A DNA stretch of 64,000 nucleotides from positions 1,138-65,137 of the IMG/VR virus record IMGVR_UViG_3300043179_000079; one strand, given 5' to 3'. The translations under genes and the position numbers were made by a program. The stretch comes from a virus. Numbering within the stretch: position 1 is the first letter of the stretch; each line of letters opens with the position of its first letter. This document shows positions 16,140 through 58,774 of the stretch, piece after piece. The notes beneath the pieces were generated by a model that was not told where the DNA came from, ran no database searches, and worked only from the letters and a program-made list of their open reading frames with translations.

Positions 16140-18641
16140 TTACGCGCTCTGCTGGACCTGGGTGATCTGGAACGTGATGGGCACGAACGCGATGGCCGTG
16201 GCCAGCTTCACCTCGGCCTGCACGATCATGGTGTTGCCCCGCACCTGGATCTTGGCGTTCCGGAAGCCCTTCGGGGCGTCGTCCGAGGCCGCGATGAGCT
16301 TCAGCCGGCGCAGGTCCTCGAAGATGCCCTCCAGGACCGTGAGGCCGACCGAGGCGCCGACGTCCGCCACCGACTGGCCGACGATCGCCTTCTCCATCCG
16401 GGTGGCCGCCGTGAGGGCGACCGTGTCGGCCCCGTAGACCGCCTGCACGCTGTTGAAGACGAAGTTGTCGTCCTTGCCGTAGGTGGTCTGGTCGGACACC
16501 CACACGAAGCCGCCGCCCTCGTCCTTGCGGACCGGGAGCAGGCCCGAGAGGAGGGCGTCCTCGACCGCGCTGTCGCTGTTGGGGTTGAACGACCCGTCCG
16601 CGTGCACCGCGCCCGAGACGTTGATGCCCTTCCGCATGATGCTGCGGTAGAAGCCCGCCGCCTGCATGGCCGCGGCCTTGACCGCGAACATCCAGGGCCG
16701 CTGCTGGACCACCGTGCCCACCGAGTTCGGCGTGCGGGCGTCCTGGAACGTCATCGAGCAGCGGAAGCTGGCGACGTTGGACGCCGCCTCCTTGTCGCTG
16801 TCGAAGTCGCCCCGGTGCGACAGGAAGGCCTGCCGGTTGCGGCGCTTCTTCAGCGTGGACATCGAGAGCACGTGGCTCTTGACGTTGGCGTTGACGCCGT
16901 CGATGGTGTAGGTCGAGCCCGAGTCCGTCAGGCCGTCCGCGACGTCGTCCGCCGCGTCGTTGCTGAACAGGGGGACGACGAAGTTGAGCCTCACCGCCTC
17001 CAGGGCGACGCAGGCCGCCAGGACGTCGGCGTCGGCCGTGGCCCCGCGGGTGCCGCCCGAGAGGAAGGCCGCGGCGGCCGGCTGCGGGACTCCCGCGGCC
17101 TCCTGGGCCTCGGGGTCGTTGAGCTGCACCAGCACCGACTCCTGGACCCGCTTGAAGAAGCGGTAGGCGTCCTGCTTGATGCCGCCGGTCTTGGCGCCGT
17201 ACGTGGTGCCGATGCCGGTGCCCGCCGTCTCGTCGAGCGAGGTGGCCGGCTGCTGTCCGAGGACCGCGGTCCCGGCGGACGCCGTGAACCCGGTCAGGGT
17301 GCTGAGATAGGCGGCCAGGTCGGCGATCGTGCCGAAGTCGGCCAGGGTGATGGGGTCGGGGCTGGAGCCGGCGCCCCCGACCACCGTGATAGTCATGACG
17401 CCGTCGGCGATGACCACGGTGCCGTCGGTGCCCTCGTATCCGAGGCGCAGGACGACCGGGCCGCCCGCCGTCAGCTCCTCCGTGATCGAGTCGAGCTGGC
17501 GGGAGACCGTCAGCATCGGCACGTACTCCGAGGCGGAGTAGATGACCGTCGGGGCCGCCGCGGTCGAGATCCAGTCCACGGGCTCGTCGGTGAGGGCGTA
17601 GGCGTTGTAGGTGAACCGGCCGGTGGCCGTGGTCAGCTCGTTGACCTCCATGCTCTTGCCGACGCCGTCGTACGGGGTCGGGCTCTCGTCGTTCGTGATC
17701 GTGACCGGGGAGTAAGCCACGAGGTCGGCCGTGGTCGAGGTGATGGCCACCGCGCCCACCGCCACCGGGGCGGTCTTCTCGTTGCCCACCGCGCCGTCGG
17801 CGTCGAGGAGCTTGGTCGCGCTGATGACCGTGCTGGTCGCCGCCGTGACGACGTACGAGCCGGCGTTCTGGCTGGAGCCGCCCTCGATGACCGACCCGGT
17901 CGGGATGTACATCAGGTCGCCGACCGACGGGGTGGTGGTCCACGCCGTGGACTTGGTGACCGTGACGTCGAAGCCGCTCACCACCGCCAGGGCCAGGGTG
18001 CCGGCCACGACCGTGATGATGCCGCGGTTGACGCCGCCGGTGGCCGCGACGCCCGCGAGGGCGCCGACGCCGGCCACGAAGGTGTCGGGCATCTCGTCGG
18101 CCGCGATGCTGTAGAGCAGCGACGAGGAGCCGGTCAGGCGGATGCTGATGTCGGTGGCGACCGTCGGGGGAGCGAAGGTGAAGGGGCCCGAGGTCGGGGG
18201 GTCCTCCTCGGTGACCGCCTCGACGGTGCGCGAGATCAGGTTGCCCGGCTTGCCCGGCATGCGGGCGACCAGGTCCATGGAGTCCCCGCCCCAGTTGGTG
18301 AGGGACGAGGAGGCCGCGGCCGACACGTTGGTCTTGACCAGGACGATGCGCTGGAACGCGCCCTGGATGTCGGGGTCGTTCGCGGCGGCCATCGCCTCGC
18401 GGCACGCGTCAACGAGCGGGCCCGAGCCGTACTTCGCGACGATCTCGGCGAGCTGGTCGGGGCCGAACGCGTTCTCCTGGAGGTCCTCCTCCTTGGTGAA
18501 GTCCGGGCCCTGGTCGGCCTCGCCGATCACGGCGAGGACGCCGACGGTCGAGAGGCCGGCCGAGCTGCGCTCGACCTTGGTCTGGGCGTAGGCGCCCGGG
18601 ATGATCAGGACGCCCGCGTCGGTGGGGAATGAAAGTGCCAT
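16140..18641 (-). CDS. tail sheath protein
   Basis: 833 aa; N-terminal PGAY.......S and IG.A..G; C-terminal sheath-like domain ending I.FVPITF.I. Confidence 0.85.
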   Translation of the reverse strand: MALSFPTDAGVLIIPGAYAQTKVERSSAGLSTVGVLAVIGEADQGPDFTKEEDLQENAFGPDQLAEIVAKYGSGPLVDACREAMAAANDPDIQGAFQRIVLVKTNVSAAASSSLTNWGGDSMDLVARMPGKPGNLISRTVEAVTEEDPPTSGPFTFAPPTVATDISIRLTGSSSLLYSIAADEMPDTFVAGVGALAGVAATGGVNRGIITVVAGTLALAVVSGFDVTVTKSTAWTTTPSVGDLMYIPTGSVIEGGSSQNAGSYVVTAATSTVISATKLLDADGAVGNEKTAPVAVGAVAITSTTADLVAYSPVTITNDESPTPYDGVGKSMEVNELTTATGRFTYNAYALTDEPVDWISTAAAPTVIYSASEYVPMLTVSRQLDSITEELTAGGPVVLRLGYEGTDGTVVIADGVMTITVVGGAGSSPDPITLADFGTIADLAAYLSTLTGFTASAGTAVLGQQPATSLDETAGTGIGTTYGAKTGGIKQDAYRFFKRVQESVLVQLNDPEAQEAAGVPQPAAAAFLSGGTRGATADADVLAACVALEAVRLNFVVPLFSNDAADDVADGLTDSGSTYTIDGVNANVKSHVLSMSTLKKRRNRQAFLSHRGDFDSDKEAASNVASFRCSMTFQDARTPNSVGTVVQQRPWMFAVKAAAMQAAGFYRSIMRKGINVSGAVHADGSFNPNSDSAVEDALLSGLLPVRKDEGGGFVWVSDQTTYGKDDNFVFNSVQAVYGADTVALTAATRMEKAIVGQSVADVGASVGLTVLEGIFEDLRRLKLIAASDDAPKGFRNAKIQVRGNTMIVQAEVKLATAIAFVPITFQITQVQQSA

Positions 18642-19865: not shown

Positions 19866-19894
19866 CCGGATTGGTCTCCCCCGCTTCGGGCATG

Positions 19895-19901
19895 AAGATT
19901 G
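19895..19901 (-). promoter_or_regulatory. candidate late-promoter box CAATCTT
   Basis: 29 nt upstream of ATG 19865. Confidence 0.5.
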
Positions 19902-19971
19902 TCCGAGGGTTGACAACAAATCGGTCGGAAAAACTACACGATGGCGCGACGACCCTTACAAGACCGCGCGA

Positions 19972-19978
19972 CAATCTG
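19972..19978 (+). promoter_or_regulatory. candidate late-promoter box CAATCTG
   Basis: 6 nt before ATG 19985. Confidence 0.5.
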
Positions 19979-19984
19979 GAGGAC

Positions 19985-20728
19985 ATGATCGAACAGTTCC
20001 GCTGCACCCGCTGCCTCCAGACGAAGCCGAGGGCCGACTTTCATGAAAACCCCTCTAGCCGAGCAAGAAGGCCGGTGGTGTACGTTTGCAAGTCATGCCG
20101 CACAACCGTCCGGACCCAGAAAAGGCTGTACAAGTACGGGACCGTCTGCGTTACCTGCAACGAGCCTGGGCCGACGTACGACGACAAGTGCGGTAAATGC
20201 TTGAAGAGATGCGGGTTGAAATACTGTCGCTCCTGCAGGAGAGTCCAAAGCCGCACCGAGTTCTACCCCCACAGGGCCATATGTCTCTCCTGTGAGAAGT
20301 CCCTGGATAGACGCACCGAGACGTACATGGCCATCCTGGAGAAAAAACGAAAAAGGAAGGAAGAGGTCCGTCTTAAGCAGTGCGTCACGTGCAGAAAAAC
20401 CAAGCCGAAGGACGAGTTTTACCGAAGAGACGAGTGCACTACCTGCTCCGACGCGGTGTCTGACGAACAACACAGGGATCGATACCGAGGCTGGATGCTG
20501 CGCAAGCTGTACAACCTATCTCTCGACGACTACGAGCGGATGAAGCAAGAGCAGGGCGGGGTCTGCAAAATATGCAAGGGTTCCAGTTCGACGAAAGCCC
20601 TCGTGGTCGATCACTGCCATCTTTCCGGCAAGGTACGCGGGCTCCTGTGCCATAACTGCAACACAGGCCTGGGCATGTTCCGCGACAACCCCATGACGAT
20701 GAGGTCGGCAGCAGACTATCTGGGTTGA
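19985..20728 (+). CDS. endonuclease VII-type homing endonuclease with N-terminal zinc fingers
   Basis: QGGVCKIC...LVVDHCH.SGKVRGLLCHNCN.GLG.FRD; lower GC. Confidence 0.9.
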   Translation: MIEQFRCTRCLQTKPRADFHENPSSRARRPVVYVCKSCRTTVRTQKRLYKYGTVCVTCNEPGPTYDDKCGKCLKRCGLKYCRSCRRVQSRTEFYPHRAICLSCEKSLDRRTETYMAILEKKRKRKEEVRLKQCVTCRKTKPKDEFYRRDECTTCSDAVSDEQHRDRYRGWMLRKLYNLSLDDYERMKQEQGGVCKICKGSSSTKALVVDHCHLSGKVRGLLCHNCNTGLGMFRDNPMTMRSAADYLG

Positions 20729-23145: not shown

Positions 23146-23484
23146 GTGATAAGATTACCCTACATGGTCACGGACCCGGAAGAGGTGGCGGCGGCCGGAC
23201 GCGTCATCCGCAGGTTCGTGGAGGACATGAGCATCCGCCTGCGCTTCGGGATGAAGATGCGGCGGGCCGTCCAGAAGACCATCGCCGCCGGCAAGACGCC
23301 CGAGGGGTACCGGCCGGACTGGACGATCAAGACCGCCCGGAGGATAATCGAGGTGCTGAAGGAGGCCGAGGCCGACTTCAACGCCCGGTACCCGTGGGAC
23401 CAGGTCAGCGTCCTGGACATGCACGACGTGGTGGCCACGGTCAGGGGCATGGTAAACGGAGGAGAGGAAGACGATGATGATTGA
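23146..23484 (+). CDS. hypothetical protein (start 23146 or 23164)
   Basis: Strong GC3 bias. Confidence 0.7.
   Translation: MIRLPYMVTDPEEVAAAGRVIRRFVEDMSIRLRFGMKMRRAVQKTIAAGKTPEGYRPDWTIKTARRIIEVLKEAEADFNARYPWDQVSVLDMHDVVATVRGMVNGGEEDDDD
23151..23157 (-). promoter_or_regulatory. candidate late-promoter box TAATCTT
   Basis: 16 nt upstream of GTG 23134. Confidence 0.5.
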
Positions 23485-23789
23485 CAAGGTCAAGGAAGTT
23501 GCTCAGGGCCGCCGCGTCCTCGGCCTACACGGCCCTCCTGTACTGCAGCGGGCTCGCGTGCGCGGCGCTCGGCTTCTCCTCGGAGTCTAGCCTAGACGCC
23601 TGGCTGGGGGCGATGGCGCTGGCGGCGTGCATGGTGGCCCTGGAGGCCCGGGCGAGGAGGCGCGGCCTGGAGGAAGGCTACCTCCAGGGGGTCCTGGTCC
23701 AGGAGAAGAGGGAGGTACGGGCGCTTAGATCGATGACGAGATCCGCTCCAGCAGGGCGGGGGCGACCTCGCGCTCGAAGGTCTCCATGA
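23481..23789 (+). CDS. two-TM membrane protein
   Basis: TTGA overlap start; two hydrophobic helices; tail overlaps convergent gene. Confidence 0.5.
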   Translation: MTRSRKLLRAAASSAYTALLYCSGLACAALGFSSESSLDAWLGAMALAACMVALEARARRRGLEEGYLQGVLVQEKREVRALRSMTRSAPAGRGRPRARRSP

Positions 23790-24570
23790 CCCAGTCGGCC
23801 ACGTCCTCCAGGATGTGCGCCCCCTCCAGGCCCGGGTGCTCCCAGCGGCCCTGACCGCGGTGCTTCTCCGAGGCCACCCGGAACGTCATGATGTCGCGAC
23901 GCACCCCGGCGCCCGCCTGCCGCTGGTAGACCCCCACCCCCCGCAGGAAGGGGATGCCCCCGCCCCCCGGCCCGCCCCCGCGGGCCTGGCGCTCGTTGGG
24001 GCCCTGCTTTACGTCCCCCACCGGGCCCCAGCCCTGCCCGGGGCCGACCCCGGTCTTGATGGGGCGGTCGTCGATCGAGAACTTGTGCAGCCGGCCGGTC
24101 AGGGCCCGGCCGGCGGCGTCCCGCTCGATCTTGCCGAAGGGGATGCCCCTCCGCTTCATCTCCGACTTGATGGTGTTCACCAGGGAGGCCTGGGCCGGGG
24201 TCACCGTGCTGCCCGCCCCGGGCCCGTGCCGGAAGGGCACGACCAGGTACCGGGTACCGTCCTTGGAGACCCGCGCCTTGGGGCTCTTGAGCAGGTCGTC
24301 CAGCATCGAGTGCGCCGGCAGGCCGTCGTCGATCCAGCGCGCCTTGGCTTCGAGCTGGATGAACCAGGTGCCGTCGTTGACCTGCTGCACCGACAGGCCG
24401 TCGAGGAACATCTGCCGGCGGGTGCGCAGCCTCTGGGCGGCCAGCTCGACCGCCCGGGCGTGGCCCATGGCCGTCAGGTCGCCCGCGGCCTTGCGCATCT
24501 CCCTGTCCGCGACCTGCCCCAGGTTGAGCAGGTCGATCAGGGCGCTCAGGTCCACCGAGGCCGAGAACAC
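23725..24570 (-). CDS. putative neck/tail-completion protein (HK97 gp10-like position)
   Basis: A...L...R..Y/F...L...YL.VPF.H...FR..S...W.HPG pattern of large-myovirus neck genes. Confidence 0.65.
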   Translation of the reverse strand: MFSASVDLSALIDLLNLGQVADREMRKAAGDLTAMGHARAVELAAQRLRTRRQMFLDGLSVQQVNDGTWFIQLEAKARWIDDGLPAHSMLDDLLKSPKARVSKDGTRYLVVPFRHGPGAGSTVTPAQASLVNTIKSEMKRRGIPFGKIERDAAGRALTGRLHKFSIDDRPIKTGVGPGQGWGPVGDVKQGPNERQARGGGPGGGGIPFLRGVGVYQRQAGAGVRRDIMTFRVASEKHRGQGRWEHPGLEGAHILEDVADWVMETFEREVAPALLERISSSI

Positions 24571-24581
24571 GGCGACCCTCC

Positions 24582-25568
24582 TTAGTGGATCGAGGGGTTG
24601 CGGGCGCTGGCGGGGTGCCCGGCCGGGTCCTGCGCCAGGACCATCCCCGAGCGGACGCTCACCCAGGATACGCTGCCGTCCTCGTGCCGGACCTTGACCT
24701 TGCCGTCGTGCTGGGTCCCGACCGGGAGGTTGAGCTTCACGCGACCCGCCTCGGCGCCTCCGATACCCTTCTCCACCGGGGCACCCTCGGCGGCCGGGGC
24801 GGGAGGGGCGGACGGGGGCGGGGCCGCCTCCGTCCTGGGCAGGAGCCTGGCGGCGTCCCGCACGGCGTCCAGCAGCTCGGCCAGGGCCTCGACCACGGCG
24901 GGGGCCCGCTCCTTGAGGGCGGCCAGCTCGCGGGCCCGGCCCTGCATGGCCCTCAGCACGCCGGCCAGGCGCTCGCGGGCCTCGTCGCCCTCCTTAGCGG
25001 CCCTGGCCTTCGAGGCGCCCTCGGTCTCCCCGGAGGCCTGGGCGGCCTCGCGCAGCTCGTCGGCCAGAGAGGCTTGAGCGGGCTTCTGGGTCTGGGGCTC
25101 GACCTCGGCCTTGCCCAGGCCGTCTCCGTACTCCTCGGCCATCTTGGCGCCCTCGGAACGCTCAGCGCTCAGGCTAGCCGCCACCTCGGCCTCTACCTCG
25201 GGGGAGTGCACCACGGCCCGGTCCCCGCCGCGCAGCTTGGCGGCGTACAGGGCCTTGGCGGCCTCGGACAGGCGCGCCCCGACCCCCACCGACACGGTGG
25301 CGCCGGTGGCCTCCTGGTACCTGGCCCGGACGTCCTCCAGCCGGTCTAGGCGGGCGGCGGACACGGTGGCCCGGCCCTCGTCCCCTCCCATCTGCACCAG
25401 GGCCCCTCCGCCCTCGACGCACCAGGACTCGAACACGCGGTTGCCGCGGTCGATGGCCCCGCTAAGGCGGGCCAGCTCCTCGGGCTGGTCGTGCATGGTG
25501 GCCAGCCCCACGAGGCGACCTATCCGGTCGCCATCCCAGGCGATCCACACGCTAGAGTCGAGTTTCAT
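24582..25568 (-). CDS. minimal CRISPR polymerase (mCpol)-like nucleotide cyclase domain plus C-terminal extension
   Basis: WDGDRIG (25527-25535), MGGDEG (25377-25388), TVSVGVG.RLSEA.KAL.AAK..G; followed by GLGKAE. Confidence 0.75.
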   Translation of the reverse strand: MKLDSSVWIAWDGDRIGRLVGLATMHDQPEELARLSGAIDRGNRVFESWCVEGGGALVQMGGDEGRATVSAARLDRLEDVRARYQEATGATVSVGVGARLSEAAKALYAAKLRGGDRAVVHSPEVEAEVAASLSAERSEGAKMAEEYGDGLGKAEVEPQTQKPAQASLADELREAAQASGETEGASKARAAKEGDEARERLAGVLRAMQGRARELAALKERAPAVVEALAELLDAVRDAARLLPRTEAAPPPSAPPAPAAEGAPVEKGIGGAEAGRVKLNLPVGTQHDGKVKVRHEDGSVSWVSVRSGMVLAQDPAGHPASARNPSIH

Positions 25569-26190
25569 AGTAAAATCTCCGATCGCAAGACACACGACCA
25601 CGCTGCACAGAGCGCCGAATTGCGGCCCGATCTACCCCGTAATGCCGGGCAGCAGCTCCCACGGAGTTGAACCGATTGCCCAGGTCGTCACAGACCGCCT
25701 TACCGGGGCGAGAGGCCTCCATGGCCAGACGATGAGCCTGGCTGAGCGGCCTACCGAGCTTGGCTTGCCGAATCTTCTCCTTTGACTCCGGCGACCATAC
25801 CCGATCTCGCGACCACGGAGCCGGGCGTCCAAGAAGCTGCAATGACCTCGCCGCTCGCTGCTCTGGCGTGTACCTGTAACCGGAGGTGCCCCCACCCCCC
25901 TCTGTGGCGTTCGTCAAGCGTCCGCTTCGACCGAGACTCTTGATCCAGGACACCTCCGCCTTGTCCAGCGCCTCACGGCCACCCAAAATCGTCTCAAGGA
26001 CGACCCACCGTGGACGAAGACCCTTGCGTTGTAGACACTGAAGCCATCGGTCACGGTGGGAGTCGTCGTGGATCTTCAAATGCGCCCTTACCCTGGCTTT
26101 GACATCTTGCGTTGTCTGCCCGACATACCTGACCTCGTTGGTCTCAGGATCGATAAGACCGTAAACAAGGCCACAAACTCCGGGCTCCAC
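25552..26190 (-). CDS. GIY-YIG homing endonuclease with NUMOD-like tail
   Basis: VYGLIDP...VRYVGQT...E..WI...LTN.TEGG; WSPESKEKIR; RFNSVGAAARHYG. Confidence 0.9.
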   Translation of the reverse strand: MEPGVCGLVYGLIDPETNEVRYVGQTTQDVKARVRAHLKIHDDSHRDRWLQCLQRKGLRPRWVVLETILGGREALDKAEVSWIKSLGRSGRLTNATEGGGGTSGYRYTPEQRAARSLQLLGRPAPWSRDRVWSPESKEKIRQAKLGRPLSQAHRLAMEASRPGKAVCDDLGNRFNSVGAAARHYGVDRAAIRRSVQRGRVSCDRRFYYETRL

Positions 26191-26196
26191 GGACCC

Positions 26197-26203
26197 AAGA
26201 TTG
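26197..26203 (-). promoter_or_regulatory. candidate late-promoter box CAATCTT
   Basis: 6 nt before GTG 26190. Confidence 0.6.
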
Positions 26204-26265
26204 CCCCCCTTGACGAGGTCGAGGTCGGGAGGCTACCATCTACCCATGACGCACAGGAGCACGAG

Positions 26266-26766
26266 ATGAGCGAGGTGGCCCAGGTGGCGGCGCTGGTGTG
26301 CGCCTTGGCCGGCAAGCCGCCGGAGTGCCGGCTCAAGGGCATCCGCCCGCGGACGGTGGCCGCGCACATCCTCAAGGCGGTCAAGAGGCACCCCTCGGTG
26401 ACCCCCGAGGAGGCGGCGCTCATGCTCCTGCACGAGTCCCGGTTCAACCCCGACGCCAGGGGGGCCGGGGGCGAGCTGGGGATGGCCCAGCTCTACCGAG
26501 GGAAGATCGCGACCCGCGGGTACAACCGCCTCACCGACCGACAGCTCATGAACCCGGAGCTGAACATCCGCCTGGGGGTGCGGCACCTGGCTCTGGTGAA
26601 GGCCGACTGCTCCGGAGCGGGCAAGCCGGTCTCCCGCTGGATCGGGAGGTATTCTGGTGCTCCTTGCGGGAGGACGCGCTACGGCAGGCTGGCGGCCAAG
26701 CAGCTCGGCGATGCGCACAAGATCCTCCGCCGGCACGGGGTCGTGCTCGCCTCGGGTGGGCCGTGA
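26266..26766 (+). CDS. lytic transglycosylase (SLT domain)
   Basis: HESRFNPDA, GELGMAQL, NPELNIRLGVRHL, RYSG; AGGAG SD. Confidence 0.85.
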   Translation: MSEVAQVAALVCALAGKPPECRLKGIRPRTVAAHILKAVKRHPSVTPEEAALMLLHESRFNPDARGAGGELGMAQLYRGKIATRGYNRLTDRQLMNPELNIRLGVRHLALVKADCSGAGKPVSRWIGRYSGAPCGRTRYGRLAAKQLGDAHKILRRHGVVLASGGP

Positions 26767-28515: not shown

Positions 28516-28522
28516 AAGATTG
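28516..28522 (-). promoter_or_regulatory. candidate late-promoter box CAATCTT
   Basis: 9 nt before ATG 28506. Confidence 0.6.
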
Positions 28523-28525
28523 CCC

Positions 28526-29344
28526 CTACCGAGGACCGAAGCCGCCGCTCTCCGGCGCCCTCTGCTGGCGCGCGGGGTCGCCGCCGACCGCGTCCGGGTC
28601 CTGCTGGCTGTTCAAGAAAACGTATTCCCTTTGCACGACGCACGCCTGCGGGGCCCGGATCGTCTTCAGGGCCCCGTCCGCCCCCTTGACCCGGATCAGG
28701 CGCAGCTCGTGGAGCATCCGCAGGACGACCCAGTAGGGTCGGTGCAGGTAGCGCACCGAGTAGACTGCGCGGCCGGTGCTGGGCTCTGGCGGGGGCCGCC
28801 TGCCGGTCCACCGGATGCGCCCCCCGGACACCTCGAAGTCGGCCCCCTGGGCGTACCGGGCGCCGGTCCAGTCAACCAGGTCCTGCACCTGGAGGGCCGG
28901 GAAGGACAGGCGATCGACCCCCGCCTCCGAGTGCTTGACCGTCTCCCAGTAGGGGACCATAACCGCCTCGTCCTCCAGGTACATGCGGTCGAAGGCCTGG
29001 AGGAACACGGGCTGGCCGTCGTCGTAAGTCCTGGGCACGGTGAGCTGGGCCGACCCGACGTCCAGCATGCCGACGTCCGAGTCCCGCTTCTGGCGCGGGT
29101 TGCCCACGAACAGGCAGGAGGCGGTCCCGGACCTGGTCAGCAGGTAGCCGCCGCTGCAGCCCTCGTGGTCCTCGTGCGGCCGGCGCGCGTCGTGCTCGTC
29201 CACCAGGCCGACCGGGCAGCGCATCGCCCTCCAGTGGACGAACCTCGCCCCGTGGTCCCCGACCGCCTCGTCGAACGCGTCGGCGTCGAAGTGGACCGAC
29301 CTGGATGGCAGGTCGAGGAAGACCCGCTGTCTCGACTCGGCCAC
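28526..29344 (-). CDS. putative head-closure/neck protein
   Basis: F...F...G....W.A..CP...C.G.G pattern of large-myovirus neck proteins. Confidence 0.7.
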   Translation of the reverse strand: MAESRQRVFLDLPSRSVHFDADAFDEAVGDHGARFVHWRAMRCPVGLVDEHDARRPHEDHEGCSGGYLLTRSGTASCLFVGNPRQKRDSDVGMLDVGSAQLTVPRTYDDGQPVFLQAFDRMYLEDEAVMVPYWETVKHSEAGVDRLSFPALQVQDLVDWTGARYAQGADFEVSGGRIRWTGRRPPPEPSTGRAVYSVRYLHRPYWVVLRMLHELRLIRVKGADGALKTIRAPQACVVQREYVFLNSQQDPDAVGGDPARQQRAPESGGFGPR

Positions 29345-29672: not shown

Positions 29673-29679
29673 AAGATTG
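29673..29679 (-). promoter_or_regulatory. candidate late-promoter box CAATCTT
   Basis: 7 nt before ATG 29665. Confidence 0.6.
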
Positions 29680-31347: not shown

Positions 31348-31539
31348 CTAGGAAGATTGACGAACCGACACCGAGTAGTTCTGGGACCGGTTGATGGCCG
31401 CCACGAGGTCCGCGACGCTCTCGGTCGGGTCCCGCAGCACCCACGCCATGTGCTCCTTGACGTACGCCCGCAGCGCGTCGTCCCCGACGAGGGAGACGGA
31501 CCTCCTCGTCCACAGGTTGTCGATGGTGTAGGTGCTCAT
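31348..31539 (-). CDS. stand-alone homolog of the N-terminal domain of the tandem kinase protein
   Basis: Y.I.NL.T.....L..DD.L......W.......S...L......Q shared with start of 31544..33838. Confidence 0.7.
   Translation of the reverse strand: MSTYTIDNLWTRRSVSLVGDDALRAYVKEHMAWVLRDPTESVADLVAAINRSQNYSVSVRQSS
31353..31359 (-). promoter_or_regulatory. candidate late-promoter box CAATCTT
   Basis: 10 nt before ATG 31342. Confidence 0.55.
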
Positions 31540-31543: not shown

Positions 31544-33838
31544 CTATACTACCCTCGTGCTGGCGTACGGGTCAACGAACTTCTCTTCGGGGTCGGGGAG
31601 GGTGTCCGCCGGCCGGTCCTCCGGCTCGATCGGGGGGTCTACGTGGTCCTTCAGGAAGGAGTCCTCCCTGCCCCAGGAGGCGGCCCTGAGGAGGTGGTCG
31701 TACCTGGCGTTGAAGCCCCGGCGCACGTGCTCCCGCTCCCGCGGGTCCCTTATCATACCCAGCCTCGCCTCGAAGACCCTCTTGACCTCGGGGGCCGCCT
31801 TGGACCACCACGCCATGGTGCGCTTGACGTCTCCCGGGCCTCGCTCCTGGTCTTCCCCGGCCAGGGCGCTGTTCTGGTACTGGTCGTAGAGGCTCGTGTA
31901 CGTCCTCCAGTGTCTGCCTGTGCCGTAGTCGTAGCTCATCGCGTTGTCGATGGCGAGGGGGCGCCCCCTCGCCATCATGAGGTTGCCTGGGTGGCGGTCG
32001 GTGTTCTGGGACAGGAAGTCCATCACCGCGATCCTCCGTAGGTCCTCCCTGGCGGTGGCGGACACCCTGAAGCTCTGCTCGTGGTCGGCCTCCGGGTCCA
32101 GGTGCACGGCCAGCATGGGCACCGGGCCCGCGGATCCCCGGGCGAACACCACCGACACCTTCTGGTGCAGGCGGCCGATGCCGGCGGCGTGGTAGAGGGC
32201 CTGGTTGGTCATCTCGGACCACCCCAGCTTGGGGTGCCTCGTGCCGTACTGCCGGTGGTCCTCGTGGTACGGCTTGAGGAGGAAGGAGTGCTGGGCCCCC
32301 TTCATGACCACCTTAGGGGAGACCCCGGTGACGCCCTCGCTCCGATCCTCCACCGTGTTGTCCGGGTGCGCGAGGGAGGCCCGGAGGTCGTCGAACACGG
32401 CCCGGTGCTGCTTTCGCTCCCACGAGGGCTCGGCGTGGTGGTCGGTGGGAGGGGCCTGGGGGTCGTGCGGGTGCGTCTTCCCGTGCATGGCATCGACCTC
32501 GGGCGCGGGGACGGCCTTGGCCAGACCGACCCCCAGGCCCGTAGCCCACGCCCGGTTCACCGAGAAGTCCGCCAGCTCCGAGGACGCTGCCGCCTGCAGG
32601 GCCGACAGCCGGTCCAGGCTGGGCTGCGGGTCAACCCCGTACCGGGCGAGGGCGAGGGCCAGCCGCGCCCGGTCCACGGACCCCAGCCAGGACCTCAGGG
32701 ACCTCTCCCCGTCCACGGTGGCGCGCGGGAGCCCCGCCAGGCGCTCCCCGGGCGGCAGGCGCGCCCACCCCTCGGGCGCCCACACCCGCAGGTAGTAGGG
32801 GGTGAAGCTGTTGGGGTCGTTCGCCGGGTCGAACCCGCGGCCGGCCAGGGCCGACCCCTGGTCGATGAGCTGGACCGGGCGGTCCTCGGACGAGAGGACG
32901 TTCCGGCTGTGCCGGTCGGTCTGACCCAGGACCCAGTCCGCGGCCGCCAGCATGTGCAGGGTGCCGTCCCCGAGCAGGGGGAGCAGCGCCAGCCGCAGGC
33001 CGGCCTGGTCGTCGCGGAAGCGCCGGTACATGGGGGCGAACCCGGCCGCCTCGGAGAGCCACTCGACGGCGGCGTACTGCCGGCCGTCCACGAGGACCAG
33101 GTCCCCGCGCGGGGCGTAGGCGCCCAGGCCCATCCCGTCCAGAGCGTGCCAGAAGGCGGCCTCGCGCTGGCTCTGGGTGGCGGTCTCGTCACGCGCGCCG
33201 GCCGCCGGGGACTGGCGACCCGAGCCGGGCTTGAGCAGGAGGGCGCGGCCGGTCTCGGGGTCATCCGCCAGGACGGCGCCCGCGGCATGCTTGCCCCCCC
33301 TGAGGGAGACGGGGTGGGTGCGCCCCGCCTTGACGGCCCTGGCGATTGCCCCGGCCGCCTCGCGGGCCTCGGGCGCTCCGGGCGCCACCTGCGCCGACTC
33401 CTTGAGGCCCTCGGCCGAGTCGTCCACCACGGCCTCGCTCTTCCGGACGCCCTCGACCGCGGCCAGGCCGCGCAGGGCCAGCCGGTTCTCCTCGGTCGGC
33501 TCCAGCCCGGCGGCGGACAGGGCCGCCGCCTCGTCGTCGCCCTCGTGCAGGACGGCGTGCGGCCGGTGGCTCGGGTCGTCGTGCAGGCCGCCCTCCCGGA
33601 GGAGGCGCGCCGCCTCCATCAGGGAGTCCACCCCGAGGGACCCCCTCGGGAACTCGGGCTCCTCCTCGTGCCACGCGTCGAACATCTGGTGGTGGGCCAG
33701 GCGCTCCAGCAGGCTCTGCGCCGACGGCGGCGACGGGATGAACGCCCACGGGGCGCGGTCCTGCGCCCAGCGGAACAGGTCATCGTCGGTGGCCAGCTCG
33801 TGGCCCTCCCCGGTGTACAGGTTGGTGATGCGGTACAT
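31544..33838 (-). CDS. tandem HipA/PI3-4K-like kinase polyprotein
   Basis: Kinase 1: LLKP, REAA, DRHSRN, LIDQG; kinase 2: LLKPY, WSE, DRHPGN, AIDNA; linkers VRKSE and LAKAV. Confidence 0.8.
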   Translation of the reverse strand: MYRITNLYTGEGHELATDDDLFRWAQDRAPWAFIPSPPSAQSLLERLAHHQMFDAWHEEEPEFPRGSLGVDSLMEAARLLREGGLHDDPSHRPHAVLHEGDDEAAALSAAGLEPTEENRLALRGLAAVEGVRKSEAVVDDSAEGLKESAQVAPGAPEAREAAGAIARAVKAGRTHPVSLRGGKHAAGAVLADDPETGRALLLKPGSGRQSPAAGARDETATQSQREAAFWHALDGMGLGAYAPRGDLVLVDGRQYAAVEWLSEAAGFAPMYRRFRDDQAGLRLALLPLLGDGTLHMLAAADWVLGQTDRHSRNVLSSEDRPVQLIDQGSALAGRGFDPANDPNSFTPYYLRVWAPEGWARLPPGERLAGLPRATVDGERSLRSWLGSVDRARLALALARYGVDPQPSLDRLSALQAAASSELADFSVNRAWATGLGVGLAKAVPAPEVDAMHGKTHPHDPQAPPTDHHAEPSWERKQHRAVFDDLRASLAHPDNTVEDRSEGVTGVSPKVVMKGAQHSFLLKPYHEDHRQYGTRHPKLGWSEMTNQALYHAAGIGRLHQKVSVVFARGSAGPVPMLAVHLDPEADHEQSFRVSATAREDLRRIAVMDFLSQNTDRHPGNLMMARGRPLAIDNAMSYDYGTGRHWRTYTSLYDQYQNSALAGEDQERGPGDVKRTMAWWSKAAPEVKRVFEARLGMIRDPREREHVRRGFNARYDHLLRAASWGREDSFLKDHVDPPIEPEDRPADTLPDPEEKFVDPYASTRVV

Positions 33839-33841: not shown

Positions 33842-34909
33842 TTAGGGGGCCCCCTTCGAGCGGTACATCGGGACGGACCCGTCGAACAGGTGCTGGCGCC
33901 CCTCGGCCGCCGCGTCCAGGAAGGCCGCCCGGCGGTTGAAGTTCTGGGAGACGTGGTCGCGCAGGCCGGGGTGCCGGATCAGGTCCAGCCTCCTGTCCAT
34001 GGCCGCCTTGACCGCGGGGGACGCGCCACGCCACCACGCCAGGGCAGGGCCGTACGCCGCAGCGCCAGCCTCCTCGCGCACCCGGACGTCGTCCATGCCC
34101 CAGTCAGCAGTGGGGCGCGGGATGGCGGGTACGAGGTTCTCCCAGGCCTGGTCCCGGTGGTAGGACAGCACCCCGTCGTCGCGGTTCATCCTCGCGACGT
34201 GGCGCGGGTGCCACTTGGGCGCCGCGTACTGGAAGGCCAGGGCGTGGTCGATGGCGAGGGGGCGCTGCTCGGGGTCGGGCCCCAGGAGTAGGTTGTCCCC
34301 GTGCCGGTTCGGCATCCCGGTCAGGAAGTCCATCAGGACCATCTTCCTGACGTGGTCGCCCATGGAGGACGGCCCGTCCCCCCTCGGGGAGACGCCCGTC
34401 TGCATGTCGCCCACGGAGGTGTGGCCGGGCGCCATGTGGACCACCACCAGGGGGTGCCGTCCGAACCCGTCGTCGTGGTGCACCACGTGGACGCGCTGGT
34501 GGAGGTCGCCGATGCCCCCGGCGTGGTACAGCGCCTGGCTGGTCATCTCGGACCAGCCCCCGATGGGGTGCCTCCCGTACCCCCGATGCAGGTCGCGCGG
34601 GATCCTCTCGAAGTAGGGCTTCACCAGGAAGCGGTCCCTGGCCCCGGCCTGCGCGGTCGAGGCGACCTCGAACACGGCCTTGTGGGAGCGGACCATGCCC
34701 ATGCCGCCCTGCCGGTGCTGGGGGGCGCCGCGGACGCTCCGGACCGGCCCCGGCCAGGACTGGACGCGCGAGAAGGCCTCCACGAGGTGGCCGTGGGCCG
34801 GCGGGTGGAGCCCCCGCTCCCGCTCGTGGTCCACCAGGGACGGGCCCTCCTTGGCCTGGGCCTCCATGACCCGGCCGACGCCCTCCAGGCGCTTGGCGAG
34901 GCTAGCCAC
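33842..34909 (-). CDS. HipA/PI3-4K-like kinase, probable pseudokinase
   Basis: LVKPY, GWSEMT.QALYHA.GIG.LHQ as in kinase 2; catalytic DRH is NRH (34301-34309). Confidence 0.75.
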   Translation of the reverse strand: MASLAKRLEGVGRVMEAQAKEGPSLVDHERERGLHPPAHGHLVEAFSRVQSWPGPVRSVRGAPQHRQGGMGMVRSHKAVFEVASTAQAGARDRFLVKPYFERIPRDLHRGYGRHPIGGWSEMTSQALYHAGGIGDLHQRVHVVHHDDGFGRHPLVVVHMAPGHTSVGDMQTGVSPRGDGPSSMGDHVRKMVLMDFLTGMPNRHGDNLLLGPDPEQRPLAIDHALAFQYAAPKWHPRHVARMNRDDGVLSYHRDQAWENLVPAIPRPTADWGMDDVRVREEAGAAAYGPALAWWRGASPAVKAAMDRRLDLIRHPGLRDHVSQNFNRRAAFLDAAAEGRQHLFDGSVPMYRSKGAP

Positions 34910-37496
34910 GGCGCCTCATGGGGTGCCTCGGGCCGACCGACGCCTCCTCCGAGGCCCGGGAGGAGTCGGGGGAGTGCTGGGCGGCCTCGCGGACGAGCCG
35001 CACGTGCTCCGGGCCGGCCTCCACGTGCCGCATCAGGGCCCCGACCTGGTGGGTGGGGTGGCGGCCGTCGCGGGTCAGGCGCGCGGCGGCGAGCAGGCGC
35101 AGCGTGTACGGGCTCCGGATGCGCGCCACGGCGGCCTGCGACACGGCCGGGTTGTCGTCCAGCGCGGCCCGCAGCAGGTCTCCCTCGCTCGGGTTGGGTG
35201 AGGCCAGCACCGCCAGCGCCCGCTCGTCGGGGTCGTGGTGGTCGAGGAGGGGGTCGGATTTCTGAAGACTTTTTCCTCCTCCTCTAGCAAATCTTTCCAC
35301 CTGTTCCTCCTCTTCTTCATCCGACAAACGAGGTATATTGTCACGATATCTGCGTTGTTCATGCCATGCGTGACCGATCTCATGTAGAATAGAGACCTCG
35401 ATCTCCCTTCTCATCTCTGGTTCGGTCACGTATCTGGCGTGTTCGGCAAGGGAAGGGGTGTGGAGGACGATATGAGGAGCGGCGTGCGTAAACCTGACGA
35501 AGGTGCTTACCGCGTTGTGGTTTTTTTCTGGCAGTTTGGTTGCGTAATGGATTGTGGGCTCGATCATCCCCAGCTTACGAAAGGTGTTTTTGTGGTCCTT
35601 TAGGACACGTTGCACCATGTCCACCATAGAAGGAGGCGGAGACGGGTCCTTTTGGTAGCCACGCATGACGGGGCGTCTTGCCATCTGGAGCCAGTGTTCT
35701 GGGTCGTATGTAGATTTCTCCAGGCACTCCTGCGACGCGAGGAGGTCGTCCTCGCTCTTCCCCACGGGGGCGGCGCCGACGTCCGCGGGCAGGAGCTGGT
35801 CGGCGTACGCCCGCACGTGGTGGTACGCGCGCTTCATGGCGTCATCGACCAGGCGGGCCCCCTGCTCGTCCCGCTCGTTGGCGGAGTGGTACCTCCGCCT
35901 GGTCTGCGGGTCGTTCACGTAGTTGTGCAGCAGCGCGACGCACTCCTCGTTGAAGGACCGGCCGTCGGGCTGGTAGCCGCGGTGCTCGGCGAACCTCTCG
36001 ACGTGGGACCTGAGGGCCTGAGGCAGAGAGCCGACGAGGCGCTCCGCCAGCCGCCAGCGCGCGGGCAGGCCGTGCCGGACCTCGACCTCCCGCATGGCGA
36101 GGTGGAAGTCCTCGTGCAGGGCCGTCGCCGCGGCCGAGTTGTGGTGCTGCGCGTCGTACGGCCTGGCCTCCCCGGCGAGCGCGAAGGCCGCCCTGGACCC
36201 CGGGACGCTGCTGGCGGTCCCCATGAGGCCCGGCCTGCTGCCGCTCTGGACGTCCACGGCGTCGCTGGCGCTCCTGGCCCGGACCGCGGACGCCCGGTCG
36301 GCGTTGTAGGCGTCCAGGTGGCGGGCGTGCGCCGCCCCTATCAGCCTCATCCGCAGACCGGCCTCCTGGGTGGTGGTCACGAAGGGCGTCTCCCGGCGCG
36401 GCTCGATGCCCAGGCCCTTGAACGCGATCTGGGGCTGGAACTTCTCCAGCGGGACCGACTTGAGGGTGTAGGAGTAGGGCGGATACACGGACCCCTGCTT
36501 CTCGCTGGGCGAGTAGGCTAGACCGTGCTTCCGCGCCAGGGCCTCGTGCACCCTCCTGGCCCCCTCGGTGTGGGTGCCGCCGGTCACCGAGTCCACTCCG
36601 AGCACGTGCTTGGCGTGGACGAGGGCGGCCTCGTACATGGCAGTCCCCAAACCCTTGCCTCGGAACGCCCTGGCGAGAGATGAGTGGATCTCGATCCCGG
36701 GCCGCCTTCCGGGACGCGGCTTCCACACCTCCAGCCTCCCCACCATGTCGCCGCGGTGGCGCAGGCGCACCTCGAAGATGCCGTGGTCGGGGTTGTCGAA
36801 CAGCTCCATGTCGGTATCGCCGCCACGGTGGGTCTCGGGGAGGAGGTGCCCGTAGTCGTAATACCAACTGCCGGCGCCCTTCTGCCTGCCCGTGGGCAGG
36901 TCCGCTATCGCCTTTCCGAGGGGCTGCGTCGATGACGCCCGGCGCACGTACTGGCGCACCACGTTATCCGGCCCCTCGGGGCCGTGCAGGTAGTCCCACA
37001 CCTCGGGGTCGAGCCCCTGGTGGACCGGGTGGAAGGTCCACTCGGCGGCCTCCCGGTCGGGGTCGAGCAGGCCGTGGGCCTGCCCCGAGACCAGGGCGGT
37101 GAACACGTGCAGCGTCTTGCCGTCCGGGGTCGTGCTCGTGCCCGCGGGCGTGACCGACATCGGGCGCAGGCCGGTCTCCTCGAACAGCTCGCGGCGCGCG
37201 GCCTCCTCGGGCAGCTCGCCCTCGTCCGCGTGCCCGCCCGGCAGGGACCAGCGGCCGTTGTCGTGCCGCCTCCCCAGCAGCAGGCGCCCGTGGGCGTCGT
37301 ACGCCATCACGAGGGCCACCTCCCGCGGCCCCTCGGACTTCTTGACGTCTCGGAATCCGGAGAAGTCGTCCCTGGCGACGAACCCGGCCTTCACCTCGTC
37401 GGCGTGGTCGTCGCAAGCCGGGACGTACGCCATGCCCTCGGCGTGGAGCACCTTCTTGGTGGCGTCCCTCTTGCACCTATCGCAGCGCTCGGCCAC
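34902..37496 (-). CDS. multi-effector polyprotein: Zn-finger, NUDIX, GNAT, zincin, zincin, helical repeat
   Basis: Nudix box GHADEGELPEEAARRELFEETGL; GNAT AFRGKGLGTAMY; LHEDFH and LHEIGH; linkers VKKS, LGKA, LEKF, VGKS, LEKS, LQKS. Confidence 0.85.
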   Translation of the reverse strand: MAERCDRCKRDATKKVLHAEGMAYVPACDDHADEVKAGFVARDDFSGFRDVKKSEGPREVALVMAYDAHGRLLLGRRHDNGRWSLPGGHADEGELPEEAARRELFEETGLRPMSVTPAGTSTTPDGKTLHVFTALVSGQAHGLLDPDREAAEWTFHPVHQGLDPEVWDYLHGPEGPDNVVRQYVRRASSTQPLGKAIADLPTGRQKGAGSWYYDYGHLLPETHRGGDTDMELFDNPDHGIFEVRLRHRGDMVGRLEVWKPRPGRRPGIEIHSSLARAFRGKGLGTAMYEAALVHAKHVLGVDSVTGGTHTEGARRVHEALARKHGLAYSPSEKQGSVYPPYSYTLKSVPLEKFQPQIAFKGLGIEPRRETPFVTTTQEAGLRMRLIGAAHARHLDAYNADRASAVRARSASDAVDVQSGSRPGLMGTASSVPGSRAAFALAGEARPYDAQHHNSAAATALHEDFHLAMREVEVRHGLPARWRLAERLVGSLPQALRSHVERFAEHRGYQPDGRSFNEECVALLHNYVNDPQTRRRYHSANERDEQGARLVDDAMKRAYHHVRAYADQLLPADVGAAPVGKSEDDLLASQECLEKSTYDPEHWLQMARRPVMRGYQKDPSPPPSMVDMVQRVLKDHKNTFRKLGMIEPTIHYATKLPEKNHNAVSTFVRFTHAAPHIVLHTPSLAEHARYVTEPEMRREIEVSILHEIGHAWHEQRRYRDNIPRLSDEEEEEQVERFARGGGKSLQKSDPLLDHHDPDERALAVLASPNPSEGDLLRAALDDNPAVSQAAVARIRSPYTLRLLAAARLTRDGRHPTHQVGALMRHVEAGPEHVRLVREAAQHSPDSSRASEEASVGPRHPMRRRG

Positions 37497-38780: not shown

Positions 38781-38787
38781 AAGATTG
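38781..38787 (-). promoter_or_regulatory. candidate late-promoter box CAATCTT
   Basis: Upstream of SD of 38757. Confidence 0.55.
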
Positions 38788-48967: not shown

Positions 48968-48974
48968 AAGATTG
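48968..48974 (-). promoter_or_regulatory. candidate late-promoter box CAATCTT
   Basis: Upstream of AGGAG SD of 48954. Confidence 0.6.
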
Positions 48975-52323: not shown

Positions 52324-52330
52324 AAGATTG
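52324..52330 (-). promoter_or_regulatory. candidate late-promoter box CAATCTT
   Basis: 9 nt before ATG 52314. Confidence 0.6.
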
Positions 52331-58767: not shown

Positions 58768-58774
58768 AAGATTG
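58768..58774 (-). promoter_or_regulatory. candidate late-promoter box CAATCTT
   Basis: Abuts GGAGG SD of 58757. Confidence 0.6.

Follow-up and report, generated by a model that had tools for sequence, protein, structure and literature searches.

We found that a protein encoded among the late structural genes of a large uncultured phage almost certainly carries a true minimal CRISPR polymerase (mCpol) domain. The source is a contractile-tailed, Mx1-like virus related to Myxococcus phage Mx1, and the window is the whole stretch of 64,000 nucleotides that was analysed, from a contig that is 41% complete. The residues present in the active site indicate that the domain is probably catalytically active. 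In the explanation that we prefer, to which we give a probability of about 45%, this is a three-part late protein and a paired cyclase whose product would act against host immunity.

Panoptes systems rely on mCpol/OptS for the constitutive synthesis of cyclic dinucleotides, 2',3'-c-di-AMP or related ones. These keep a membrane effector inactive for as long as they are not depleted by phage sponges (PMC12657218, PMC12657230), in line with the first-pass annotation of this DNA. The effector is S-2TMbeta in type I Panoptes and CARF-TM in type II (PMC12657218, PMC12657230, PMC13577387). Both types occur in Myxococcota (Supplementary Table 3, PMC12657218).

Gene layout and protein architecture

The gene is a stop-free open reading frame (protein P0001). 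A Shine-Dalgarno sequence, GGAG, lies 9 nt 5' of the ATG at 25568, and the homologues, of which at least 39 full-length ones were collected, share the same start. The GC3 of the gene is 0.91. The slippery heptamer CCCAAAG is absent from it, and its three modules share one frame (Table 1).

Table 1 Features of the mCpol-bearing gene, its product and its surroundings
Feature	Position	Strand	Basis or remarks
Whole gene, 328 aa + stop, modular late protein	24582..25568	-	ORF, translation, GC3, SD, homologues
mCpol palm domain, aa 6-120	25209..25553	-	Pfam PF18182, AF2, Foldseek, PDB profile match
Catalytic D12	25533-25535	-	Within D12-G13-D14, 25527-25535
Catalytic D63	25380-25382	-	Within G61-G62-D63-E64 (GGDE), 25377-25388
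T.SVGVG..LSEA..AL..AK motif	aa 91-111	-	Translation
GLGKAE motif	aa 150-155	-	Translation
Two linker helices, aa 123-151 (AF2: 123-134, 139-151)	25116..25202	-	Near-invariant K..EY at end
Boundary motif 1, L151-G-K-A154 ([LIVM]-x-K-[SAG]); candidate processing site	25107..25118	-	
Helical stalk, aa 168-242; predicted dimerisation element	24843..25067	-	AF2 helices 168-209, 212-221, 223-242
Boundary motif 2, V265-E-K-G268, in disordered Pro/Ala linker aa 243-276	24765..24776	-	pLDDT <50
Small beta domain at C-terminus, aa 277-328; candidate anchor	24585..24740	-	AF2 strands 290-321, pLDDT 74-85
p281, downstream syntenic neighbour; possibly neck/tail-completion-like	23725..24570	-	phrog_16819 E 7e-18; always directly after mCpol gene
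GIY-YIG homing-endonuclease-like gene, upstream insert	25552..26190	-	Pfam GIY-YIG E 0.002; overlaps mCpol start by 17 nt
CAATCTT late-type motif, head of transcription unit	26197-26203		
p272, upstream syntenic neighbour, virion structural protein family	28526..29344	-	phrog_1004 E 6e-12; conserved synteny

Residues K142, Y147 and K153 of the linker region are conserved in at least 90% of the homologues, and the stalk segment is conserved in all of them. The C-terminal beta domain has the consensus LPVG..GKVKV.H.DG..W..VRSG.V...P.S.RNP, with P282, G284, K292, G298, W302, G308, S321, R323 and P325 conserved among homologues. The C-terminal half (aa 165-328) has no Pfam match, no recognisable fold relatives and no usable Atlas look-alike, and the protein was assigned to no PHROGs family. 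HMMs built from the stalk and from the C-terminal domain match only the orthologue at each locus; paralogues were found neither in the rest of the window nor at other places in the loci. Thus these two parts are not a shared targeting tag.

Identity of the palm domain

The Pfam mCpol model (PF18182) matches the protein well beyond chance, with 43.9 bits against a cut-off of 26.4 (E 3.6e-11), over profile positions 2-112 of 114, and it also matches all homologues scanned (sets of 39 and 62). The AF2 model has pLDDT 94-98 over aa 11-130. Its top six Foldseek matches are OptS/mCpol chains (9pd0, 9mnr, 9nwn; TM 0.82-0.87, rmsd 1.5-1.9 A), solved structures with the minimal palm (ferredoxin-like) fold. 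In a PDB profile match (E 1e-7), D12 and D63 are aligned with Asp6 and Asp57, the catalytic residues of KpOptS (PMC12657218). The first-pass annotation had described an mCpol-like palm with DGD, GGDE and T.SVGVG..LSEA motifs followed by GLGKAE, and had named the HMM search and structure prediction as checks; the motifs are where it placed them, and both checks agree with it. It was also right that HD and other Cas10 domains are missing: the Pfam scan of the protein gave no HD, zinc-ribbon, second palm or D4 domain, and beyond the palm the AF2 model contains helices and the small beta domain, nothing else.

Two related identities were considered and rejected. GGDEF (PF00990) and Cas10 palm 2 (PF22335) belong to the same palm superfamily and have the same GGDE hairpin and metal-binding Asp after strand 1; the window protein differs from them in the absence of an HD domain and of an I-site. 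A GGDEF diguanylate cyclase is not supported, since PF00990 has no match in the protein (GGDEF_GdpP reaches just 12.3 bits, and the motif reads GGDEG) and GGDEF structures rank below mCpol in Foldseek (TM by target ~0.5). Cas10 is rejected because there is a single palm, Cas10 palm 2 scores 19.3 bits, under its Pfam cut-off of 27, and no cas genes are found among the window proteins scanned; Cas10 structures also rank below mCpol (TM by target ~0.15).

The closest known system is Panoptes OptS (KpOptS 9mnr and 9pd0; mCpol 9nwn), which has the same minimal palm fold end to end at 25% identity, the same two catalytic aspartates, and the palm pairing that is predicted for the window protein. The window protein has no sensor or regulatory domain, as in OptS, and thus its mCpol is probably constitutive. 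There are also differences. OptS stands alone with about 115-140 aa; in the window protein, of 328 aa, the palm is followed by a helical stalk and a C-terminal beta domain. The canonical GGDE hairpin is kept in the window protein but nearly lost in KpOptS and VnOptS. Finally, the window gene is located in a phage late structural operon with no effector gene, and not in a bacterial defence island. For these reasons (a fusion on a viral contig, no adjacent effector) we do not regard it as a Panoptes OptS-OptE system.

Pairing and boundary motifs

GGDEF domains are activated by pairing via coiled-coil stalks. The homodimer model of the window protein has an ipSAE of 0.65, compared with 0.39 for the best control; at least 39% of contacts agree between runs, and the partner pLDDT is at least 71. 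Among proteins of solved structure, 20 of 30 pairs and one of 23 single chains reached the mark. The predicted interface includes residues 20-39, 58-66 (with a 62:62 contact), 99-104 and 190-244. Solved OptS dimers exist, and the palm-palm part of the dimer may come from the memory of the model.

Boundary motif 1 is found at the same alignment position in 34 of 39 homologues, and boundary motif 2 lies just ahead of the C-terminal domain in 27 of 39. The pattern [LIVM]-x-K-[SAG] occurs 50 times in late-block proteins against 24.5+-4.8 in shuffles; this enrichment is only about two-fold, and a weaker one is seen in non-late proteins too (18 against 10.7). We infer that the protein may be cleaved at its boundary motifs. 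The candidate prohead protease is a protein of 1105 aa whose N-terminal 200 aa and middle 505 aa match no Pfam, PDB sequence or protease family.

Genomic context

Megablast of the locus against GenBank phages gave no match; tblastn alone found Mx1. On the map, the major head protein gene (40083-41489, phrog_752) is on one side of the mCpol gene and the tail sheath gene (16140-18641) on the other. It is a syntenic core gene of Mx1 and 23 IMG/VR relatives, and the order p272 (virion structural) - mCpol - p281 - p324 - sheath - tube is found in Mx1, in the 23 IMG/VR loci and in a distant compact clade. The GIY-YIG-like gene is missing from this site in most relatives.

The best VIA match of p281 is 9mu2_P, the neck tail completion protein gp51 of 80alpha/SaPI1, with Z 9.6 (next 6.9), a weak value for a helical protein. 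We consider it too weak to name p281 as a tail completion protein. Neither p281 nor p272 has a PDB sequence match, and the p281 model has no Foldseek match. The placement of the mCpol gene in a "neck module", as initially suggested, is borne out by position and goes no further than position.

Conservation and repeated loss of the active site

An exhaustive search yielded 383 representatives of 50%-identity clusters at E<=1e-30. Catalytic residues are intact in 68 of 90 members; both are gone in 14, and D12 is gone in five. Among 31 diverse intact members D12, G13, D14, G61, G62, D63, K111 and G114 are invariant, while the mean column identity is 56%. Such invariance of active-site residues points to selection for catalysis and is hard to explain otherwise. 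A word-based search with the mCpol domain profile alone found fragments of the phage family only and no cellular mCpol; the phage mCpol appears to be a deep, separate subfamily.

The losers of catalytic residues include Mx1 and its near relative L024. The Mx1 orthologue (WNM70340.1, 468 aa, annotated as "hypothetical protein") is the sole member from a cultured phage, and it has already been entered as "mCpol+?" in Supplementary Table 3 of the 2025 Nature paper on Panoptes (PMC12657218). It is syntenic and has the same three modules. However, both catalytic aspartates of its palm have been replaced (D12 by S, GGDE by LGAV) and the palm scores below the Pfam cut-off, whereas the window copy is intact. 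Mx1 escapes the CBASS and type III-B island of M. xanthus (PMC11506125), and since its copy is dead, this escape is not due to mCpol catalysis.

In total, catalytic residues were lost independently at least four times, yet the gene, the fold and synteny were retained. Therefore the protein also has a non-catalytic role, probably a structural one. One may go further and suppose that it is chiefly a structural or assembly protein of the head-to-tail region, with the palm as a pairing or ligand-binding module and catalysis as a dispensable relic or add-on with no immune role. We consider this unlikely, although several facts speak for it: the three-module plan persists in every lineage despite the losses; dead copies still have the fold-defining SVGVG..LSEA..AL..GG elements; the palm supplies much of the predicted dimer interface; and the gene always sits with a virion structural protein gene on one side and sheath-proximal genes on the other. 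It has difficulty with the three quarters of members in which all catalytic and nucleotide-binding residues are invariant at divergence to ~30% identity, and the rest of the protein has no recognised known structural fold.

A second cyclase and host physiology

A GGDEF domain is also present in the window and in all five complete relatives, and GGDEF proteins are known in phages from annotation. The mCpol could be an active cyclase that, alongside the phage GGDEF, reprograms host second-messenger physiology (motility, exopolysaccharide, development, osmotic homeostasis) and not immunity. This agrees with a proposal of Iyer, Burroughs, Anand, de Souza and Aravind (2017) on the polyvalent proteins of phages and conjugative elements: GGDEF domains in these proteins would disturb host nucleotide signalling after delivery, a general interference with it (PMC5512222); mCpol is not mentioned in that paper. 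We nevertheless find a purely physiological role improbable. The domain is mCpol-like rather than GGDEF-like, and the characterised mCpol products, 2',3'-c-di-AMP, 3',2'-cGAMP and cA3, are immune signals and not housekeeping messengers (PMC12657218, PMC13577387). Moreover, expression from a late structural operon would be late for reprogramming unless the protein is delivered by the particle.

Search for effectors and sponges

No CARF, SAVED, Cap15-type receptor or PADLOC effector is adjacent to the gene, whose neighbours are of the structural or homing-endonuclease type, and PADLOC gave no match in nine neighbours. An ORF at 23481-23789 with two possible transmembrane segments (2-TM) is unconserved, and relatives contain no homologue of it. 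Searches of five genomes (the window contig, Mx1 and three complete relatives) for SAVED (PF18145) and for the receptor domain of Cap15 (PF18153) found neither; control genomes were silent too, so that there is no positive control and these negatives are weak. The statement of the first-pass annotation that there is no adjacent CARF/2TM effector, and that the gene is not a self-contained defence system, holds for the window and for five related genomes.

It is conceivable that the gene belongs to a phage-borne exclusion module whose signal controls an effector, so far unrecognised, that is encoded at another place in the phage genome and acts against competing phages. Cellular mCpol genes are almost always effector-coupled (PMC12657218), and the contig is far from complete; still, given the results above and the fusion of the gene to structural-type modules in a late operon, not in an accessory island, we regard such a module as highly improbable.

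Acb2-type sponges (PF13876) were not found in the five genomes, with control genomes silent too. A phage that used such a sponge would need an anti-Panoptes supply.

Hardly to be expected, finally, is a non-signalling palm nucleotidyltransferase (Thg1-like or priming-like) that works on the ends of DNA or RNA while the phage DNA is packaged or ejected: GGDEF, Cas10 and Thg1 palms do have a single common origin (PMC12657218) and the gene adjoins genes of the neck region, the place at which the DNA end is retained, but the nearest relatives by sequence and structure are cyclases and no nucleic-acid-binding module is recognised.

Proposed function

The preferred explanation, a paired counter-immune cyclase, combines three parts. 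The N-terminal mCpol palm, whose active site is intact, would be the enzyme. The helical stalk, together with the palm, is predicted to pair two copies so that the GGDE hairpins are face to face. The small C-terminal beta domain, judging by synteny, may anchor the protein to the particle or the assembly machinery. Physical association with the virion or procapsid is a tentative proposal, a little short of an even chance. The conserved motifs at the module flanks point to a possible release of the modules by a phage protease.

By analogy with stand-alone mCpol in Panoptes, the paired palms, once in the host cytoplasm, would constitutively convert NTPs into a cyclic di- or oligonucleotide, and this product may tamper with nucleotide-based host immunity. 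In the most economical version it would keep Panoptes-type effectors silenced or compete at CBASS or type III receptors. We hold counter-defence by signal supply or decoy to be rather doubtful on present evidence. The most specific scenario, in which an active mCpol dimer packed in the particle is injected with the DNA, released by the protease, and makes either a Panoptes-silencing nucleotide or a receptor-blocking analogue, has poor odds.

Virion delivery and resupply of the signal or decoys, as had been put forward from the sequence, seem more plausible given the late structural context, the boundary motifs, the polyvalent-type inserts and the occurrence of Panoptes in Myxococcota. In homologues GNAT, ART-PolyVal, ParB_N, NUDIX and DUF5661 are inserted between the stalk and the C-terminal domain. 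Unrelated enzymatic domains (the first four) are thus strung with the cyclase across the phage family, as in polyvalent proteins; the window copy, in contrast, has one enzymatic domain, and it has no MuF or portal fusion to show packaging. The delivery and counter-defence reading is tempered by the repeated loss of catalytic residues with the gene kept, including in Mx1. In the most specific scenario, lineages on hosts without Panoptes-type guards, possibly Mx1 among them, would have let the active site decay and kept the structural carrier.

Conclusions

Work on mCpol has so far been confined to its role as the bacterial half of Panoptes, a guard system by which the sponges and phosphodiesterases of a phage are made to act against it. 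Here a large conserved phage family has an intact mCpol with no effector, in a particle-building operon, and in all complete genomes examined it is accompanied by a second cyclase (GGDEF). This suggests that phages may synthesise immune-type nucleotides themselves. Active and dead forms within one family provide a natural comparison set, in which Mx1, the sole cultured relative, is the wrong model for enzymatic function. If the reading is true, the family would be a ready source of new cyclic-nucleotide chemistries. A viral counter-guard would permit sponges, nucleases or host shut-off without alarm, and if its product matches or antagonises host guard signals, a virus would for the first time be seen to answer inhibitory (inverse) signalling.

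Identity of the mCpol domain

P0001, encoded on the (-) strand of the window, is a genuine phage copy of an immune-type cyclase, intact and set in an architecture that is both unusual and conserved. It almost certainly carries a true mCpol domain (a minimal Cas10/GGDEF-type palm cyclase). Residues 9-119 match the Pfam family PF18182 with 43.9 bits (E 3.6e-11; curated cut-off 26.4 bits), covering 111 of the 114 profile positions, and the Cas10 palm 2 and GGDEF-type Pfam models stay below their respective cut-offs. A profile of 39 homologues aligned end to end with solved mCpol chains in the PDB (9nwn and 9mnr/9pd0, E about 1e-7). The AlphaFold2 model obtained from the alignment of these homologues has pLDDT 94-98 over residues 11-130. 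In a Foldseek comparison with the PDB, the six best matches of this model are OptS/mCpol chains of Panoptes, a guard system whose synthase is OptS (TM 0.82-0.87 by target, rmsd 1.5-1.9 Å, about 25% identity), followed by GGDEF cyclases and Cas10 (Csm1). Thus the HMM search and the structure prediction, both suggested as checks in the first-pass annotation, came out in favour of the mCpol-like cyclase it had proposed. A Pfam scan of P0001 found no HD, zinc-ribbon or second palm domain, in agreement with the absence of HD and other Cas10 domains that it had also noted.

Asp6 and Asp57 of KpOptS, a solved OptS, are catalytic according to mutagenesis (PMC12657218), and D12 and D63 of P0001 align with them. 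The GGDE hairpin is nearly lost in the Panoptes enzymes, whereas the phage protein keeps it in canonical form. The domain is likely to be catalytically active.

The GC3 of the ORF (0.91) is as expected of genuine genes in the window (70% G+C). GGAG lies 9 nt ahead of the ATG at 25568 and homologues start at the same residue, so the gene boundaries assigned initially hold. The four motifs reported with them are also in place (see the table).

Features of P0001, its gene neighbourhood and related loci
Feature	Position	Strand	Remarks
P0001 ORF	24582-25568	-	328 aa
DGD	25527-25535	-	residues 12-14
GGDE	25377-25388	-	residues 61-64
T.SVGVG..LSEA..AL..AK			residues 91-111
Two linker helices			residues 123-151, AlphaFold2 model
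GLGKAE			residues 150-155
L151-G-K-A154			boundary motif just after linker helices
Stalk (long helical segment)			residues 168-242, AlphaFold2 model
Disordered Pro/Ala stretch			between stalk and beta domain, contains V265-E-K-G268
Small beta domain			residues 277-328, pLDDT 74-85, signature strongly conserved in homologues
Portal	55589-57769	-	
1105-aa protein ending in GGDEF domain	48997-52314	-	PF00990, 35.1 bits, aa 934-1060 (~49135-49515)
ELSKALEAG			1105-aa protein, aa 186-194
Major head protein	40083-41489	-	
DLVKALEAG			major head protein, aa 9-17
NUDIX-GNAT protein	34902-37496	-	864 aa, NUDIX 75 bits
PI3/PI4-kinase-like pair, adjacent	31544-33838, 33842-34909	-	catalytic-loop matches
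p103, then p272, p274, p289		-	p272: phrog_1004, virion structural protein
mCpol protein, then p281, p324, p271, p415		-	p281: phrog_16819
SLT transglycosylase	26056-26766	+	interrupts late block
GIY-YIG	25552-26190	-	interrupts late block
Endonuclease VII	19871-20728	+	interrupts late block
Tail sheath	16140-18641	-	tube-like gene beside it
CAATCTT copies (others exist)	26197-26203, 28516-28522, 29673-29679, 31353-31359, 38781-38787, 48968-48974, 52324-52330, 58768-58774	-	
Catalytically dead orthologues	L001:11998-13404 (Mx1, WNM70340.1), L024:5147-6988		both aspartates gone; fold motifs, stalk and C-terminal domain kept
C-terminal domain as separate ORF	L016:11968-12234, L022:2972-3247		distant relatives

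Predicted pairing and possible processing

Modelled as a homodimer, residues 1-245 passed the controls, with an ipSAE of 0.65 against 0.39 for the best control; its runs share at least 39% of contacts, and the partner pLDDT is at least 71. Of 30 proteins solved as pairs, 20 reached the mark, as did one of 23 solved as single chains; these counts are only rough here because a custom alignment was used. The predicted interface includes the palm (residues 20-39, 58-66 with a 62:62 contact, and 99-104) and the stalk (190-244), so that the two GGDE hairpins would face each other, as a cyclase would need. Since OptS dimers have already been solved, the model may reproduce a known arrangement in the palm-palm part instead of predicting it; the predicted contribution of the stalk is new.

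The motif [LIVM]-x-K-[SAG] follows the palm-plus-linker unit in 34 of the 39 homologues and the stalk in 20, and stands just before the C-terminal domain in 27. It occurs 50 times in late-block proteins of the window, against 24.5±4.8 after shuffling (maximum 40 in 1000 residue shuffles), with the strongest enrichment in a scaffold-like protein, p274, p415, and the NUDIX and kinase proteins; the excess in non-late proteins is weaker (18 vs 10.7±3.0). The major head protein and the 1105-aa protein have [LV]-x-K-A-L-E-A-G in common near a plausible propeptide boundary, and this may be a common processing site. The pattern of boundary motifs fits the action of a putative head protease. A protease domain was not found, and the N-terminal 200 residues of the 1105-aa protein match no protease family.

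Genomic context

The source of the window is a viral IMG/VR contig of 67.7 kb (estimated 41% complete) that shares synteny with Myxococcus phage Mx1 (169.6 kb), the only cultured relative. The late block runs on the (-) strand from the portal down to the sheath and a tube-like gene. It is interrupted by Endo VII, GIY-YIG homing-endonuclease-like, SLT and dNMP kinase genes, some on the opposite strand. Mx1 and 23 IMG/VR loci, many of them on contigs of 165-176 kb, share the order p272 ... mCpol - p281 - p324 - sheath - tube; even a distant, compact clade without the NUDIX and kinase genes has it. This conservation indicates that the mCpol gene belongs to the core of the head-to-tail part of the late operon rather than to an accessory island. 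Its assignment to the neck module stands by position; the single structural hint is the best match of the p281 model, to gp51, the tail completion protein in the neck of 80alpha/SaPI1 (Z 9.6, rmsd 3.8 Å, 101/109 residues; next match Z 6.9), which is weak for a helical protein.

CAATCTT on the (-) strand lies mostly directly upstream of late-block gene starts, and the degenerate BAATCTK has 20 matches in the window against 10.2±3.4 in shuffles. This distribution is consistent with a candidate phage-specific late promoter. As one copy precedes the GIY-YIG ORF, which has 17 nt in common with the start of the mCpol gene, these two genes are probably co-transcribed.

In relatives, GIY-YIG-like genes are found at varying sites near the mCpol gene. 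The SLT gene as annotated begins within GIY-YIG, with an overlap of 135 nt, and its true start is probably further downstream. In Mx1, a 1479-aa "NUDIX hydrolase" takes the place of the NUDIX-GNAT protein, pieces of which resemble inserts of mCpol homologues in other phages. One protein of the kinase-like pair exceeds the cut-off with 31.3 bits and the other reaches a weak 16.5 bits; the Mx1 counterpart is annotated as "kinase".

None of the PADLOC models matched in nine neighbours of the mCpol gene, and P0001 itself touches solely the mCpol end of a CARF-HEPN-mCpol model. Searches run without a positive control found no Cap15/S-2TMbeta receptor domain, SAVED or Acb2 sponge in the window contig, Mx1 and three complete relatives. 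Hence P0001 does not belong to a self-contained Panoptes-like system; the first-pass annotation had likewise held that it is not a self-contained defence system. A 102-aa ORF with two hydrophobic helices between p324 and p281 (23481-23789, + strand) has borderline codon bias (GC3 0.82) and no counterpart in 24 related loci, and is unlikely to be a gene of the system. A GGDEF domain besides the mCpol protein is present in the window and in all five complete relatives examined, and by domain assignment these phages consistently encode two putative palm-type cyclases in the late region.

Family and loss of the active site

A word-based search returned 39 relatives of full length; every one is metagenomic and contains PF18182. 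Run exhaustively with the domain profile, HMMER gave 1327 cluster representatives at E<=1e-3, of which 383 reach E<=1e-30; the best 150 matches are nearly all 300-1300 aa long and have the domain at their very N-terminal end. An uncultured Caudovirales phage supplies one full-length relative in BFVD, which also contains several phage GGDEF proteins. The stalk and the C-terminal domain are common to 62 long representatives, with variable inserts between them: GNAT (11), DUF5661 (7), ParB_N (2), ART-PolyVal (1) and NUDIX (1). In two distant relatives the C-terminal domain is a separate small ORF directly after the mCpol ORF; the window has no such split, and no -1 frameshift is present in its gene. 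Members with inserted GNAT, ART-PolyVal, ParB_N or NUDIX domains resemble the polyvalent proteins of Iyer et al., in which unrelated enzymes are strung in one polypeptide proposed to enter with the invading DNA; the published domain list includes GGDEF, not mCpol (PMC5512222).

We aligned to the domain model 90 non-identical members, collected through protein searches and from loci. D12 and D63 are kept in 68 of them, both are lost in 14, D12 alone in five, and three are truncated. A FastTree phylogeny requires two to three origins for the dead copies and two for the D12 losses. The larger dead clade holds the Mx1 protein (D12 to S, GGDE to LGAV) together with its relative L024. Dead copies retain the fold-defining SVGVG..LSEA..AL..GG, the stalk, the C-terminal domain and synteny. 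Retention of the gene after catalytic loss implies a further role that does not need the chemistry, most simply a structural or assembly one. Among 31 intact members the catalytic columns are invariant at a mean column identity of 56%, which indicates that the chemistry is under selection in most lineages, the window's included.

Possible function

The mCpol fold with an intact active site, the three-module plan, the late synteny and the repeated loss of catalysis with the gene kept are the observed base for an account of function. We slightly prefer counter-defence by signal supply or decoy, at a probability of about 0.3. The main rival, a chiefly structural protein with dispensable chemistry, is tentative to a similar, somewhat lower degree: the dead copies speak for it and the invariant catalytic columns against it. 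Reprogramming of host physiology jointly with the GGDEF protein, which the constant presence of a second cyclase would suit, is unlikely. A phage-borne exclusion system, whose effector would have escaped our searches, and a non-signalling nucleotidyltransferase, at odds with the best fold matches, are both very improbable.

Under counter-defence, P0001 would pair through palm and stalk, as predicted, and make a cyclic di- or oligonucleotide constitutively in the host cytoplasm. The C-terminal module would tie the protein to the particle or procapsid, with possible release at K-[SAG] sites; an association with the virion has slightly less than even odds. The product would act on nucleotide-based immunity of the host, for instance keeping Panoptes effectors silenced or competing at CBASS/type III receptors.

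A keyword search of the main texts of the Panoptes papers returned no discussion of viral mCpol. WNM70340.1 of Mx1 is listed as "mCpol+?" in Supplementary Table 3 (PMC12657218), so the existence of a phage mCpol protein has already been catalogued once; such a copy is not unique to the window. Mx1 escapes an M. xanthus island of CBASS plus type III-B (PMC11506125). As its copy is dead, this escape cannot be credited to mCpol catalysis, and the only cultured member is a poor model for enzymatic function. According to Supplementary Table 3, Archangium and Corallococcus have mCpol with S-2TMbeta, while Nannocystis and Sorangium have it with divergent CARF-TM (PMC12657218). Panoptes is thus present in Myxococcota, and such guards are indeed in use in the likely hosts of this phage group.
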